DNA from: a virus
Lineage: Duplodnaviria; Heunggongvirae; Uroviricota; Caudoviricetes
Virus record (IMG/VR): IMGVR_UViG_3300028591_008384
Reading direction: 5' to 3' (one strand)
DNA: 17,006 bases
Below are positions 5,791 through 16,103 of this stretch, one piece after another. Under the pieces are notes generated by a model. That model was not told the DNA's origin and did no database searches. It was given only the letters and a program-made list of their open reading frames with translations. The position numbers were made by a program, and so were the translations under genes. Position 1 is the stretch's first letter. Each line of letters starts with the position of its first letter.

Positions 5791-6330
5791 CTATAATTCG
5801 GGGGTCCATTTCAGTAAGTGGATGTACCGGCAAGCCACCTTGTATCCTTCCGGCGCAACCGGGATTGCATTCTTGTACTTGGGTCCAAGAACGGTGTCCC
5901 AGCATTCTTCAAGCGCGTCCTTCAAGGTATCTTCGAGAGTGCAACTGATTACGGCAGCGGCAATTTCGTCGGAATCCATCTTGCGGCGCTTCTTCTTGGG
6001 CATGCCCGGTATGGGCTCTTCCTCGATGATGAAATCCGGATATTCCTCCTTCAGCCAGGCCTTCCACGCAGCCGCAACATCCTTCGGGAGGTTGTACGGG
6101 AACGGGCAGGTGTCCTTTCCATTCACGGCATCTTCGGCAACGGAAAGGTTCTTGATGAAAGTGGGAATGTATGGAATGATAATCGACGGGACGAGCACCC
6201 GGATACGGGCGGAATAGTGCCTGGTAGGCTGCGGCTGCGGCATGTCATACTTCAAGTCCTTCAAGATGTACTGGACCGTGAAGTCGGTGACCTTCACCGC
6301 GAGTTCTGTTTCATCGGCATCTAGTTTCAC
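5791..6330 (-). CDS. Hypothetical protein, 179 aa
   Basis: GTG start in a GTGA overlap with the upstream stop. Stop lies 7 nt before the nuclease ATG. Codon bias matches neighbouring genes. Confidence 0.75.
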   Translation of the reverse strand: MKLDADETELAVKVTDFTVQYILKDLKYDMPQPQPTRHYSARIRVLVPSIIIPYIPTFIKNLSVAEDAVNGKDTCPFPYNLPKDVAAAWKAWLKEEYPDFIIEEEPIPGMPKKKRRKMDSDEIAAAVISCTLEDTLKDALEECWDTVLGPKYKNAIPVAPEGYKVACRYIHLLKWTPEL

Positions 6331-7154
6331 GGTACGAGCTCCAACAGCTGCTTCTTGGTAATGTGCGACACCGTGAACATTGCATCGAAGGTCTGGATCA
6401 TGTGTTCCAGGCGTTCCATGTGCATCGGGTGCGTACTGAACCGGAGTTCTTCCTCGCTAATCTTGTGCGCCCAGTTAAGGCCGATGACCATCATTACAGC
6501 GGCAACGGCACCCTGCGCACCGAGGCAGCAGGATTGCAGTACGGCGGATGCCCAGGAGTCGGCCTGGCGTTCATCGTTGCGGTTGATGCTGCAATGCATG
6601 CCCTGTCCCTTGTAGTACAGGTGGCCAAGACAGATATGTCCGCATTCGTGGGCCATTACAGCCATGAGGATAGTCTTCGCGTACATGCGGGCGACTTCCT
6701 CCTGGACACTATCTTCTTCAAGATGGAACTTGTCCCACATCCTGAGCAGGAGGTCGGAACCAACGCAGCCCATTGTCGCCGCTTTGCGCATCCATTTGAG
6801 CATGGCACGGGCCTTGCGGGCGCTTCCGGTACGGTCGAGGATGGCAATCACCACTGCCAGTGCGCTTAGCCAGTCAAGCATGCCCTGCAGGATGACAATC
6901 CGGTACTTATGGGGAATGAAACCCTTGGCCTTTTCCGGATCCTTGGGAATCTGTGCCTTGATTTCCTCGTCACTCAGCCTAGATGCGAAGGCATTGACGG
7001 ACAGGCCATCCCGTATTTCGATACGGGTTTCCATGGCAAGACGGGCACAATGTTCCGTACGGAGCTGCACGAGCTCGGAAGAACATATTGCATTGAAGGC
7101 CGAACTCACATCGGCTTCGCTTAGATGATAGGCCGTTCCATTCCAATTCGACAT
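6327..7154 (-). CDS. Zinc metallopeptidase, M48-like or U49 (Lit-like), 275 aa
   Basis: MAHECGHICLGH (HExxH), NDERQADSWA (ExxAD) and FSTHPMHMERL (THP..R). Start set at ATG 7154 behind AAGGGGA. Confidence 0.8.
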   Translation of the reverse strand: MSNWNGTAYHLSEADVSSAFNAICSSELVQLRTEHCARLAMETRIEIRDGLSVNAFASRLSDEEIKAQIPKDPEKAKGFIPHKYRIVILQGMLDWLSALAVVIAILDRTGSARKARAMLKWMRKAATMGCVGSDLLLRMWDKFHLEEDSVQEEVARMYAKTILMAVMAHECGHICLGHLYYKGQGMHCSINRNDERQADSWASAVLQSCCLGAQGAVAAVMMVIGLNWAHKISEEELRFSTHPMHMERLEHMIQTFDAMFTVSHITKKQLLELVP

Positions 7155-7399
7155 GTGGCTATCCCCTTGTCGGTAAGGTACTTGTAGATGATCAGAGAAA
7201 GACCGGACTTTCCGCCTTCCTTGGCGAGCAGACGCTTTATATCGCGCATGCGGGATACCCGTAGCCAGGTCTTCCATTCGTCATCGGTCATGTCACCGCG
7301 TATTACATTGGTAATACCTGGTGTAGTTGATTTGAAATCCGGGACAACGACGTAACCGTCGCGGAAATCCTCGGGCAAACTTTCCTTTAATTCTGCCAT
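7121..7399 (-). CDS. Hypothetical protein, 92 aa
   Basis: SD AAAGGAAG and an upstream TGCTATATT promoter. Overlaps the peptidase start by 34 nt. Confidence 0.7.
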   Translation of the reverse strand: MAELKESLPEDFRDGYVVVPDFKSTTPGITNVIRGDMTDDEWKTWLRVSRMRDIKRLLAKEGGKSGLSLIIYKYLTDKGIATCRIGMERPII

Positions 7400-7866: not shown

Positions 7867-7895
7867 AATGTAGCATTTTGGCTTAGGTATGGCAA
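7867..7895 (-). promoter_or_regulatory. Promoter TTGCCA-17-TACATT with TGn extension, leaderless
   Basis: TTGCCA at 7895-7890 (inside the last codons of the aroE-like gene), TACATT at 7872-7867, then 6 nt, then ATG. Confidence 0.8.
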
Positions 7896-8661: not shown

Positions 8662-9408
8662 CTACGGGTGCGGAATACGGATGATTTCACGCTTGAACTG
8701 GTTACGACCAGCCATCTCGGTGATTTTCTTGGCAACTTCCGGTTCAAGAGGCTTGTTGGCGAGGTAGTCCTCAATCTGGGCATAGGTGATGCCGAGGGAT
8801 TCCTCGTCAGTCTTTCCGGTGAGGCCGTCGCTAGGAGCCTTGAAAACGAGACGGTCGGGAAGGCCCATGAACTTGCCGAGTTCGCACACTTCGCGCTTGG
8901 TGAGAATTGCGAGCGGAGCAAAGTCTCCCGCCAGGTCTCCCCAGAGGGTGCAGTAGCCGACAATGGATTCACAACGGTTGCCAGTGCAGCAAACACGCCC
9001 GTTGTTCGGCTGTCCATTTTCATCCACGGACTGGGCGACCGCATAGAGAGTAGCCATACGCAGACGGGGACGGAGGTTCAGCTTGGCCTGTTCCGAGTTG
9101 GCGAATCCCGGAATAATCTTGGCCATGTGTGCATTGGTTTCGCCGATGTCAATCTCGTAGGTACGGGTGATACCGGCAGCAGCCGCGGCATCGTATGCAT
9201 CCTGGATATCAGGCTGGTAGCCGCAAGGCATGAACACACCAATCACGTTTTCGGGGCCGAGGGCTTCCGTCAAGAACCTGGCAGCCACGGTGGAATCAGC
9301 ACCGCCGGAGATGCCCAGGATGGCGGTCTTGCCACCCGTCGTCTTGAAATAGTCCCTGATCCACCCAACGATATGGTCGTGAACCTTAATCAATTCTTCT
9401 TCTTGCAT
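8662..9408 (-). CDS. nadE: NH3-dependent NAD+ synthetase
   Basis: LGISGGADSTV PP-loop, NLRPRLRMATLYAVA, TGNRCE.VGY.TLWGD, PLAILTKREV and KAPSDGL.GKTDEESLGITY. No glutaminase domain. Confidence 0.93.
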   Translation of the reverse strand: MQEEELIKVHDHIVGWIRDYFKTTGGKTAILGISGGADSTVAARFLTEALGPENVIGVFMPCGYQPDIQDAYDAAAAAGITRTYEIDIGETNAHMAKIIPGFANSEQAKLNLRPRLRMATLYAVAQSVDENGQPNNGRVCCTGNRCESIVGYCTLWGDLAGDFAPLAILTKREVCELGKFMGLPDRLVFKAPSDGLTGKTDEESLGITYAQIEDYLANKPLEPEVAKKITEMAGRNQFKREIIRIPHP

Positions 9409-13134: not shown

Positions 13135-13886
13135 TATCGCCTCATGAAGTTATAGACAGCATTGTCCCCGAGCTTCTTCCACATGTCGTTCTTGAGGATG
13201 TTGTCTATGGTTTCCGGGAGGTACTTCAACGGACATTCGGTAATACAGCCGTCAAGGTAGTTCCTGGCACTCTGCTCGGAAACGACGCATGCCCCGTTGA
13301 TTACCGGGTAGAACATGCGAACCTGTTCCTGACGGTTGTTGTTATCGTATGCGTGGATGTTCAGGATAATCTTGGAGCGACCGATCCATTTGGCCAAGTT
13401 TTCACCGGAAATGCCCATGGTGATTGTCGTTGCCCACTTGTTGCATCCGGCATTGGCAATCTGAGTAAGCAGCTTGGACCTACGCTCGGTCAGGTAGCCA
13501 TAGAACAGGACATCAACATCCTTTTCCATGTTCGGAACGTCGCGCAGGGTGCTTGCGTAGCGCATCGGGTGGAATGACGCCTGGATACCCTTCTTGGCAA
13601 GCCACTCGATGTTGTCCAGGTCATAGTCCCAGATTTCATCGGCGCCTTCAAGCCAATCGAACACATGCTTGTTGGCATACTTGCACCCGTTGTACATCTG
13701 TTCCAACTGGTACACGACGAGCTTCTTGTTGGGATACTTCTTGCGCATCCCATCCAGGGTGCACCGGGTGTCCACATGGCCGAGGATGAACACGGTATCG
13801 GCAAACTCGGGCTTGCCACCGCACTGTTCCTTCAACATGCGGGCCACTTCGGTAAAAACAAATCTGTTAGTTGCTTCAATAATCAT
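13134..13886 (-). CDS. GT-B fold glycosyltransferase, CgeB/Glyco_trans_1_2-like
   Basis: DVDVLFYGYLTERR...RSKIILNIH...EQVRMFYPVINGACVVSE pattern. ATGA coupling to the IF3 stop. Confidence 0.75.
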   Translation of the reverse strand: MIIEATNRFVFTEVARMLKEQCGGKPEFADTVFILGHVDTRCTLDGMRKKYPNKKLVVYQLEQMYNGCKYANKHVFDWLEGADEIWDYDLDNIEWLAKKGIQASFHPMRYASTLRDVPNMEKDVDVLFYGYLTERRSKLLTQIANAGCNKWATTITMGISGENLAKWIGRSKIILNIHAYDNNNRQEQVRMFYPVINGACVVSEQSARNYLDGCITECPLKYLPETIDNILKNDMWKKLGDNAVYNFMRR

Positions 13887-14563
13887 TTCTTAGGCATGCA
13901 GGAGATTGTGAAACTGTTTCCGGCGCGACTAATCTTCGCGATAGCGCCATGCTTCAATACGTTACCCATTTCTTCCTTGGTACGCTCGATGACATCATCG
14001 CAATGGGACACCTTGCGACCGGGGAAACGGATGCAGAAGTTGACCGGATGGCCCTGCTCCATGAACTCGTCACCCTGGTTCAGGATGCGTTCACGGTCGG
14101 CATCGCCACCGTTGCACGGGAAACGGAGTTCCTTGATTTCGGTAGCCTTGGCTGCCGCACGGTTCTTCTTTTCCATTTCGCGCTTCTTTTTCTTCTGCTC
14201 ATATTCGTACTTGCCGCGGTCGCCAAGTCTGGCCACCTGCGGATCCTGGTTGGGAGCCACGACAATGATGTCAAGACCACGGTCATCGGCAATCTTGCGG
14301 GCTTCCTCACTGGAAATGACACCGAACTGCTCGCCGTTCTCGCCCATCAGTCGCACGGTAGCCGTGGTGATTCCATCCTTCGGCGGGTTGCCTAGGCGGT
14401 ACACCGGCGGGTTCGCTGCCGGGTTGACGCAGACCAGGGGCAGGTCGCGGTCATTCGCGATTGCCTTGGCCTTGCCGGGGCTCATGACCCCCATAGGCTT
14501 GCCGTCCTCGCCAATCAGCATGACGGAAGAAGCAGCGATGTAGAAATTGTTCTTGAATCCCAT
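13883..14563 (-). CDS. infC: Translation initiation factor IF3 homolog with a duplicated N-terminal domain
   Basis: TVRLMGENGEQFGVISSEEARKIADDRGLDIIVVAPNQDPQVARLGDRGKYEY (IF3N), Lys-rich linker, IKELRF...FMEQG...IRFPGRK...MPKK (IF3C). An extra IF3N copy occupies aa 9-58. Confidence 0.92.
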   Translation of the reverse strand: MGFKNNFYIAASSVMLIGEDGKPMGVMSPGKAKAIANDRDLPLVCVNPAANPPVYRLGNPPKDGITTATVRLMGENGEQFGVISSEEARKIADDRGLDIIVVAPNQDPQVARLGDRGKYEYEQKKKKREMEKKNRAAAKATEIKELRFPCNGGDADRERILNQGDEFMEQGHPVNFCIRFPGRKVSHCDDVIERTKEEMGNVLKHGAIAKISRAGNSFTISCMPKK

Positions 14564-14564
14564 A

Positions 14565-14705
14565 TTATTTCTTTACCTCGTAGAGTTTGAAATCCGGTTT
14601 TGATGAAATCCTGTCATAGCAGGAATTAAATAAAATCTTTTCCCACCGTTGGGCAATTTCCTTGTCCGACGGGCGGGTGAATGTTAAGAGTTTCTGATAT
14701 TCCAT
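14565..14705 (-). CDS. Leaderless 46-aa ORF directly upstream of infC
   Basis: ATG 14705 is the predicted +1 of the promoter. The stop TAA lies 1 nt before the infC ATG. The ORF-track start at 14801 would cross a terminator and a promoter. Confidence 0.65.
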   Translation of the reverse strand: MEYQKLLTFTRPSDKEIAQRWEKILFNSCYDRISSKPDFKLYEVKK

Positions 14706-14711
14706 GTCGGA

Positions 14712-14740
14712 AATGTAGCATTTTGTATTACAGCTGGCAA
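14712..14740 (-). promoter_or_regulatory. Promoter TTGCCA-17-TACATT with TGn extension, leaderless
   Basis: TTGCCA GCTGTAATACAAAATGC TACATT TCCGAC ATG. Confidence 0.85.
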
Positions 14741-14741
14741 C

Positions 14742-14773
14742 AAAAACTACCGGGACCGAAGTCCCGGCAGTTT
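14742..14773 (-). terminator. Rho-independent terminator with a cUUCGg loop
   Basis: Minus strand ACTGCCGGGAC-TTCG-GTCCCGGTAGT-TTTT (one G.U pair), 28 nt after the ParB-like stop. Confidence 0.9.
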
Positions 14774-15792: not shown

Positions 15793-15821
15793 AATGTAGC
15801 ATGTTTTCAACAAATTGCCAA
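15793..15821 (-). promoter_or_regulatory. Promoter TTGGCA-17-TACATT with TGn extension
   Basis: TTGGCA at 15821-15816 and TACATT at 15798-15793. Predicts a 166-nt leader before ATG 15620. Confidence 0.75.
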
Positions 15822-16074: not shown

Positions 16075-16103
16075 AATGTAGCAAAATCATAACAAGTTGG
16101 CAA
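16075..16103 (-). promoter_or_regulatory. Promoter TTGCCA-17-TACATT with TGn extension
   Basis: TTGCCA directly follows the helicase TAG stop. The predicted 12-nt leader AAGAGGTAAAAT begins with the SD. Confidence 0.85.

Follow-up and report, generated by a model that had tools for sequence, protein, structure and literature searches.

The initiation factor 3 (IF3) homologue encoded by this giant rumen phage has, as comparison of related sequences shows, a selectively kept Pro at the equivalent of residue R131 of E. coli IF3. In bacteria, the choice of start site is policed chiefly by IF3, which is known to disfavour leaderless mRNAs. The reading that we favour, with a probability of about 0.45, is that the gene product is a functional jumbo-phage IF3, maintained by selection, in which two N-domains precede the C-domain (N-N-C) and whose Pro-bearing loop would reject unusual initiation complexes less strictly and so favour leaderless messages. 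The fold of the protein, the residue mapping, the rarity of the Pro, its derived and conserved state, the purifying selection and the promoter geometry are all directly supported. Coordinates within the window, by which we mean the whole 17,006-nt stretch analysed, are collected in Table 1.

The open reading frame encodes 226 residues, in which two N-domains are followed by a linker helix and then a C-domain. Pfam searches returned IF3_N (PF05198) in two stretches (E 1.5e-36; 124.8 bits, the cut-off being 26.9), the best of them covering residues 64-130, and IF3_C (PF00707) at 28.2 bits, under the curated 34.8, with profile positions 1-65 of 86 matched. PDB sequences yielded IF3 matches at E 1e-22 (phmmer), with residues 65-200 aligning to the full-length, 180-aa E. 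coli IF3 (8jsg_A); it is the second N-domain copy (N2) that aligns with cellular IF3 N-domains (T. thermophilus, Bacillus, E. coli). An AlphaFold2 (AF2) model based on 12 relatives (mean pLDDT 86) displays two alpha/beta N-domains, a helix at 116-140 and a beta-alpha-beta-alpha-beta-beta C-domain, the first N-domain (N1) consisting of strands 14-17, 23-27, 43-47 and 54-57 and helix 29-38. The best PDB matches of this model in Foldseek are IF3 chains (5lmn_X, E 3e-13; C-domain entry 1tig, TM 0.80, rmsd 2.1). The protein departs from the one-N plus one-C plan of bacterial InfC in that its N-domains are doubled in tandem (Pfam, AF2), and shares with bacterial InfC a C-fold joined to an N-domain by a long basic helix (AF2, Foldseek). 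With a net charge of +1 to +2, the C-domain falls near the bottom of the values found for bacterial IF3s (0 to +9, median +5). No close relative was found among 50,697 GenBank phage records, the best match showing 33-37% identity over N2-C.

Table 1. Features of the window, with the evidence or remarks attached to each
Feature	Position	Strand	Basis or remark
Phage IF3 gene (N1-N2-linker-C)	13883..14563	-	ATG start; Pfam, PDB, AF2, Foldseek
First IF3 N-domain copy, ~residues 1-63	14375..14563	-	Pfam two-stretch IF3_N match; AF2
Second IF3 N-domain copy, ~residues 64-115	14219..14374	-	Pfam; PDB sequence alignment
Lys-rich interdomain linker helix, residues 116-140	14144..14218	-	AF2 helix; aligned to IF3 linker
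IF3 C-domain, residues 141-226	13886..14143	-	AF2 secondary structure; Foldseek 1tig
D156-R-E-R-I160 (E. coli D106-Y107-Q-V-K110)	14084..14098	-	Alignment; family-wide D-R-x-R-[I/L] motif
Loop R179-F-P181-G-R-K184 (E. coli 129-RFRGR-133 plus E134)	14012..14029	-	HMMER alignment
Predicted leaderless 46-codon upstream ORF	14565..14705	-	TAA, one base, then IF3 ATG
Promoter of IF3 operon	14712..14740	-	Ends 6 nt before ATG at 14705; kept in L002, L004, L005
Promoter copies, TTGCCA or TTGGCA, 17 nt, TGCTACATT	16075-16103, 15793-15821, 14712-14740, 7867-7895	-	

Positions 14012-14137 (minus strand) encode residues 143-184, and the segment 143-187 aligns with residues 93-137 of E. coli IF3 without a gap (HMMER). 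This ungapped alignment equates P149 with R99, D156 with D106, R157 with Y107, I160 with K110, N162 with R112, E166 with R116, R179 with R129, F180 with F130, P181 with R131, G182 with G132, R183 with R133 and K184 with E134, and the R99P, Y107R, K110I, R131P and E134K equivalents that the initial annotation had read from a hand alignment are exact. The conserved R-F-R-G-R loop is broken at its central Arg, replaced by Pro (codon CCC at 14021-14023, minus strand), with R179, F180, G182 and R183 kept; in the AF2 model, the R179-K184 loop sits between strand 174-179 and helix 185-202. Equivalents of D106, F117, R129, F130, G132 and R133 are all retained, and the alignment to 8jsg_A places Pro at the R131 equivalent, as in the E. 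coli R131P low-fidelity class.

In PMC11775629 (Nucleic Acids Res 2025), the 129-RFRGR-133 motif is described as highly conserved in bacteria and R131 as touching start-codon bases +2 and +3 and base +4. According to the same paper, the E. coli IF3 R131P change was found as a recJ154 suppressor, raises initiation with 3GC-modified (non-3GC) initiator tRNA and promotes initiation on non-AUG starts and leaderless mRNAs (O'Connor et al. 2001 RNA 7:969 and Tedin et al. 1999 Mol Microbiol 31:67, as cited in PMC11775629). The tolerance of non-canonical starts that the initial annotation had attributed to R131P is thereby confirmed, extending to leaderless mRNAs and non-3GC tRNA; the allele name infC135 returned no match in a literature search. 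PMC3401457 links D106 and K110 with binding to the ribosome, and R131 with touching the mRNA and telling start codons apart.

Two samples, both picked by N-domain similarity only and thus independently of the C-domain, were used to gauge how rare the Pro is outside the phage family. A genome scan with an N-domain alignment gave 80 bacterial species, spread over many phyla and each having the C-domain too, of which none has Pro at the R131 site (R 75, K 4, W 1). The second sample, from a search of 1.84 billion representatives (50% clusters) with N2 as query, comprised 150 matches, and no Pro occurs at the site in the 44 diverse cluster representatives with an intact loop (R 38, K 4, S 1, F 1). 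A common Pro at this position had been set beforehand as grounds for abandoning the low-fidelity proposal; it is rare, at 0/124 sampled outside the N-N-C family. Seven further phage IF3s from IMG/VR (L009-L015) have R or K there. In the 80 species, the K110 site is occupied by K 74, R 4, V 1 and T 1, the E134 site by E 70, A 7 and Q 3, and the Y107 site by Y 27, F 21, L 20 and others 12 (R once). The R99 site is only weakly conserved (R 46, or ~58%; S 25, others 9, Pro 0), and R99P therefore carries little weight.

N-N-C IF3s like the phage protein make up a large family known from metagenomes, for which a profile search collected 145 clusters at E < 1e-10 on contigs of up to 470 kb; its IMG/VR relatives are records of 200-355 kb with 37-47 tRNA genes and a tmRNA. 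The family, with more than 100 cluster representatives, forms one clade against single-N IF3s (SH-aLRT 100). A 249-aa protein, P0055, is a second, apparently independent two-N-domain IF3 that groups with single-N IF3s, a placement made unsure by its long branch. The R131 site of the 122 N-N-C members with the loop is occupied by R in 97 and P in 16, the other residues being S 2, N 2, F 1, Y 1, H 1, T 1 and K 1. Of the 16 with Pro, 15 read IRFPGRK and make up the whole Pro clade at the level of cluster representatives, and the remaining one, VKFPGRQ, is a second Pro-bearing N-N-C phage lineage. A tree built from 116 full-length members implies at least eight state changes at the site, with three non-R rows being singletons that could be errors and the Pro clade, an F/P pair and an S/N pair each backed by at least two rows. 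In this tree, the 15 IRFPGRK rows form the sister group of all remaining members, which are mostly R; given that R occupies the site in the outgroup as well as in most of the 116 members, Pro is derived. Judged on these alignments, the R131 site is far more changeable in the phage family than in cellular IF3, and all three residues reported from mycoplasmas (P, F and Y) are among those that it takes.

Codons were compared between the window sequence and four distinct relatives with 70-92% protein identity. The Pro at the P181 site is encoded by CCC, CCT or CCG among the relatives compared. Each pair differs by 5-10 synonymous and 0-1 nonsynonymous changes over residues 174-190, and by 26-39 synonymous and 6-14 nonsynonymous changes over the whole C-domain. 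Since Pro is fixed in the 15-member clade in spite of three different Pro codons, it is under purifying selection. A decaying pseudo-domain, considered as a candidate, is ruled out by the strong synonymous excess and by the keeping of Pro through three codons. The synonymous excess across the C-domain also bears on the idea that the protein is an occupancy factor or decoy, whose two N-domains would block or replace host IF3 on the 30S subunit or the initiator tRNA and so shut down or re-route host initiation, the loop change being incidental. The doubling of the N-domain as the defining trait of the family speaks for such a role, as do the sub-threshold Pfam score of the C-domain and its low positive charge, but a domain under purifying selection in which the core of the IF3-C fold is preserved, along with the D106, F130, G132 and R133 equivalents, is not what it would predict; of the lesser rival explanations that we considered, we hold this one to be very unlikely.

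The main rival to reduced stringency is a compensated remodelling of the loop in which proofreading is essentially kept, K184 supplying the charge lost at 131 and R157/R159 that lost at K110, with the Pro being lineage-specific and near-neutral. The net basic charge of the loop is indeed kept (RFPGRK versus RFRGRE), the K184 that replaces E134 keeps the loop basic such that mRNA contact might be retained, which counts against relaxed proofreading, and position 134 varies across the family (E, M, Q, L, G, K). Throughout the family, RFRGRE members included, there is hardly any variation in the D-R-x-R-[I/L] motif, which may relocate positive charge rather than lose binding; the charge of the C-domain as a whole stays within bounds seen in bacteria. 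The family-wide motif also means that Y107R and K110I are not specific to the Pro clade: of the role that the initial annotation had ascribed to Y107 and K110, the link of K110 with the ribosome stood, but R157 and I160 do not set the Pro lineage apart. Against compensation, R or K occupies the R131 site in 79 of the 80 bacteria, R131P on its own produces a clear phenotype in E. coli (PMC11775629), and strict conservation of the Pro despite synonymous turnover suggests that it matters. We consider the remodelling explanation unlikely on balance, while noting that what a single mutation does in E. coli may not hold for a phage C-domain that differs at many other sites.

The initial annotation had further proposed that the factor favours leaderless mRNAs of the phage. 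A minus-strand promoter is repeated in the window (TTGCCA, 17 nt, TACATT plus an upstream TG), its copies lying at 16103, 15821, 14740 and 7895. Two of the four copies have leaders bearing a Shine-Dalgarno (SD) sequence; in the other two, at 14740 and 7895, an ATG follows the end of the -10 element at a distance of exactly 6 nt. The copy at 14740 serves the IF3 operon, and IF3 synthesis may be coupled to translation of the predicted leaderless 46-codon ORF that precedes the IF3 gene. The layout of hairpin, promoter, 46-codon ORF and IF3 gene is kept in L002, L004 and L005 and not in L006; the hairpin, at 14750-14767, is terminator-like and precedes the promoter and the 46-codon ORF. Other observations in this neighbourhood concern an NAD synthase gene (PF02540, E 1e-51) at 8662-9408 and a gene for an M48/U49-like metallopeptidase at 6327-7277, both on the minus strand of the window and downstream in the IF3 gene block, with synteny kept with L001-L003, and an IS605-type OrfB/TnpB with a Y1 transposase (L001/L002:3766-5710) some 4 kb upstream of IF3 in a 250-kb relative.

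To count candidate leaderless starts, extended -10 sites with a downstream start opening an ORF of at least 40 codons were collected from four whole relative records. In the Pro clade, the start lies at offset 6 for 23 of 53 sites in G001 (25 at offsets 5-7) and 12 of 34 in G002 (15 at offsets 5-7); in the RFRGRE clade, the corresponding figures are 13 of 59 in G004 (20 at offsets 5-7) and 5 of 27 in G003 (6 at offsets 5-7). The histogram of start offsets in the four records has a sharp spike at 6 nt with neighbours near zero, and nearly all starts at offsets 5-7 are ATG. Leaderless transcripts are strongly implied by this promoter geometry. The share of offsets 5-7 is higher in the Pro clade, at 39/87 versus 25/86 in the Arg clade, which with two genomes per clade is weak evidence of a difference. 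Given that the RFRGRE relatives G003 and G004 have the same geometry, Pro is not needed for the leaderless habit, which is a trait of the entire N-N-C family and is not tied to Pro. The leaderless mRNAs that had been postulated for the phage are thus supported by an extended -10 followed by 6 nt and ATG, but not as a feature requiring Pro; restriction of leaderless promoters to the Pro clade is ruled out. Use of non-AUG starts, another candidate consequence, is unsupported: at overlapping (coupled) gene junctions, GTG and TTG starts show no excess over a CTG control in either clade.

By analogy with what has been proposed for mycoplasmas, the Pro might instead be a co-adaptation to a phage-encoded non-canonical initiator tRNA, letting through an initiator that lacks the three G-C pairs. 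The Pro-clade genome G002 does encode an initiator-like CAU tRNA (L053:3248-3320) with a U1-U72 mismatch, A73 and an anticodon stem of A29:U41, G30:C40 and G31:C39, i.e. two of the three G-C pairs, and R131P enhances the use of 3GC-mutant initiators in E. coli (PMC11775629). A non-3GC initiator-like tRNA and an altered R131, the combination described for mycoplasmas, occur together in G002, but G004, with the canonical RFRGRE, combines Arg with an even more deviant initiator-like CAU tRNA (L055:10059-10132, minus strand; C-U at 1:72, A73; anticodon stem A:U, G:C, U-G, one of three G-C pairs). No initiator-like tRNA was seen in G001, the closest relative, whose record is 52% complete, and no formyltransferase was found in the four relative records. 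We therefore regard this second of the lesser rivals as improbable.

Further translation genes were noted in the same records. The anticodon loop of the G002 CAU tRNA reads CCCAUAA, with C at position 33. Genes for tmRNA occur in G001 (L047:998-1358, tag ANNAYACRMAA) and G002 (L053:1093-1451, tag ANDAFACRMAA), in each case adjoining an array of at least 33 tRNA genes; the window has no tRNA genes. An IF1 homologue is present in Arg-clade G003 (C1:154265-154456) and G004 (C1:224866-225057), and none was seen in the Pro-clade records G001 and G002, both of which are incomplete.

Phage IF3 genes, the R131P phenotype and a natural Pro in mycoplasmas are already known. Huge phages carry IF1 and IF3 genes (Al-Shayeb et al. 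2020 Nature 578:425; PMC7162821), and resemble the present phages in exceeding 200 kb and in their large tRNA sets and other translation genes; that survey lists IF1 and IF3, and its passages on translation genes do not describe the N-N-C plan or a substitution at R131. The E. coli R131P mutant has Pro at the same RF-x-GR position with F130, G132 and R133 kept, but arose in the laboratory as a point mutation of a one-N IF3 that is wild-type elsewhere, whereas the phage Pro is natural and fixed in its clade and comes with a second N-domain as well as E134K, K110I and Y107R, the phenotype being known for E. coli only. In mycoplasmas, the R131 site of IF3 is occupied by P, F or Y and the uS9 tail is altered as well (Ayyub et al. 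2018 RNA Biol 15:70, as cited in PMC11775629), so that the Pro, although rare, is not unique, all the more as it recurs in the second N-N-C lineage. The mycoplasma IF3s share with the phage protein a natural change of R131 to Pro, in organisms whose mRNAs can lack an SD and which also employ non-AUG starts and non-3GC initiator tRNAs; the mycoplasma factor is the sole IF3 of its cell and co-evolved with the uS9 tail, whereas the phage factor is a viral extra beside host IF3. Mammalian mitochondrial IF3 likewise has a naturally altered start-codon loop in a leaderless-mRNA system, but KKGK replaces RFRGR and the protein, which is organellar, has terminal extensions and lacks a second N-domain (PMC11775629). 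Our literature search turned up no account of viral IF3s forming a family that combines a doubled N-domain with recurrent change at R131.

Returning to the reading that we favour, relaxed proofreading by the phage IF3 is plausible, and from the above we infer 30S binding, competition with host IF3 and reduced stringency. The phage IF3 would bind the 30S subunit of the host where IF3 normally sits and, by analogy with E. coli R131P and the mycoplasma IF3s, would be less stringent against weak or unusual P-site complexes. Made from an early-type promoter, it would compete with host IF3, and this competition would lift the IF3 penalty on the many leaderless AUG-start transcripts of the phage and possibly also on phage initiator tRNAs without three G-C pairs.

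About a third to half of promoter-proximal phage genes apparently start at the first RNA base. A broader proposal, which we put forward as tentative and somewhat doubtful, is that the N-N-C IF3 of rumen and gut jumbo phages might be a dedicated initiation factor for a largely leaderless transcriptome, with repeated replacement of R131 (at least six lineages: P twice, S, N, F, Y, H) tuning how far each phage loosens the host start-site check. If true, this would amount to a virus-encoded rewiring of initiation fidelity. A phage with its own IF3 in which the gatekeeping residue is changed would be a natural experiment in the re-programming of initiation fidelity, and a family of more than 100 members varied at one site would offer a natural variant series for dissecting P-site codon reading by IF3.
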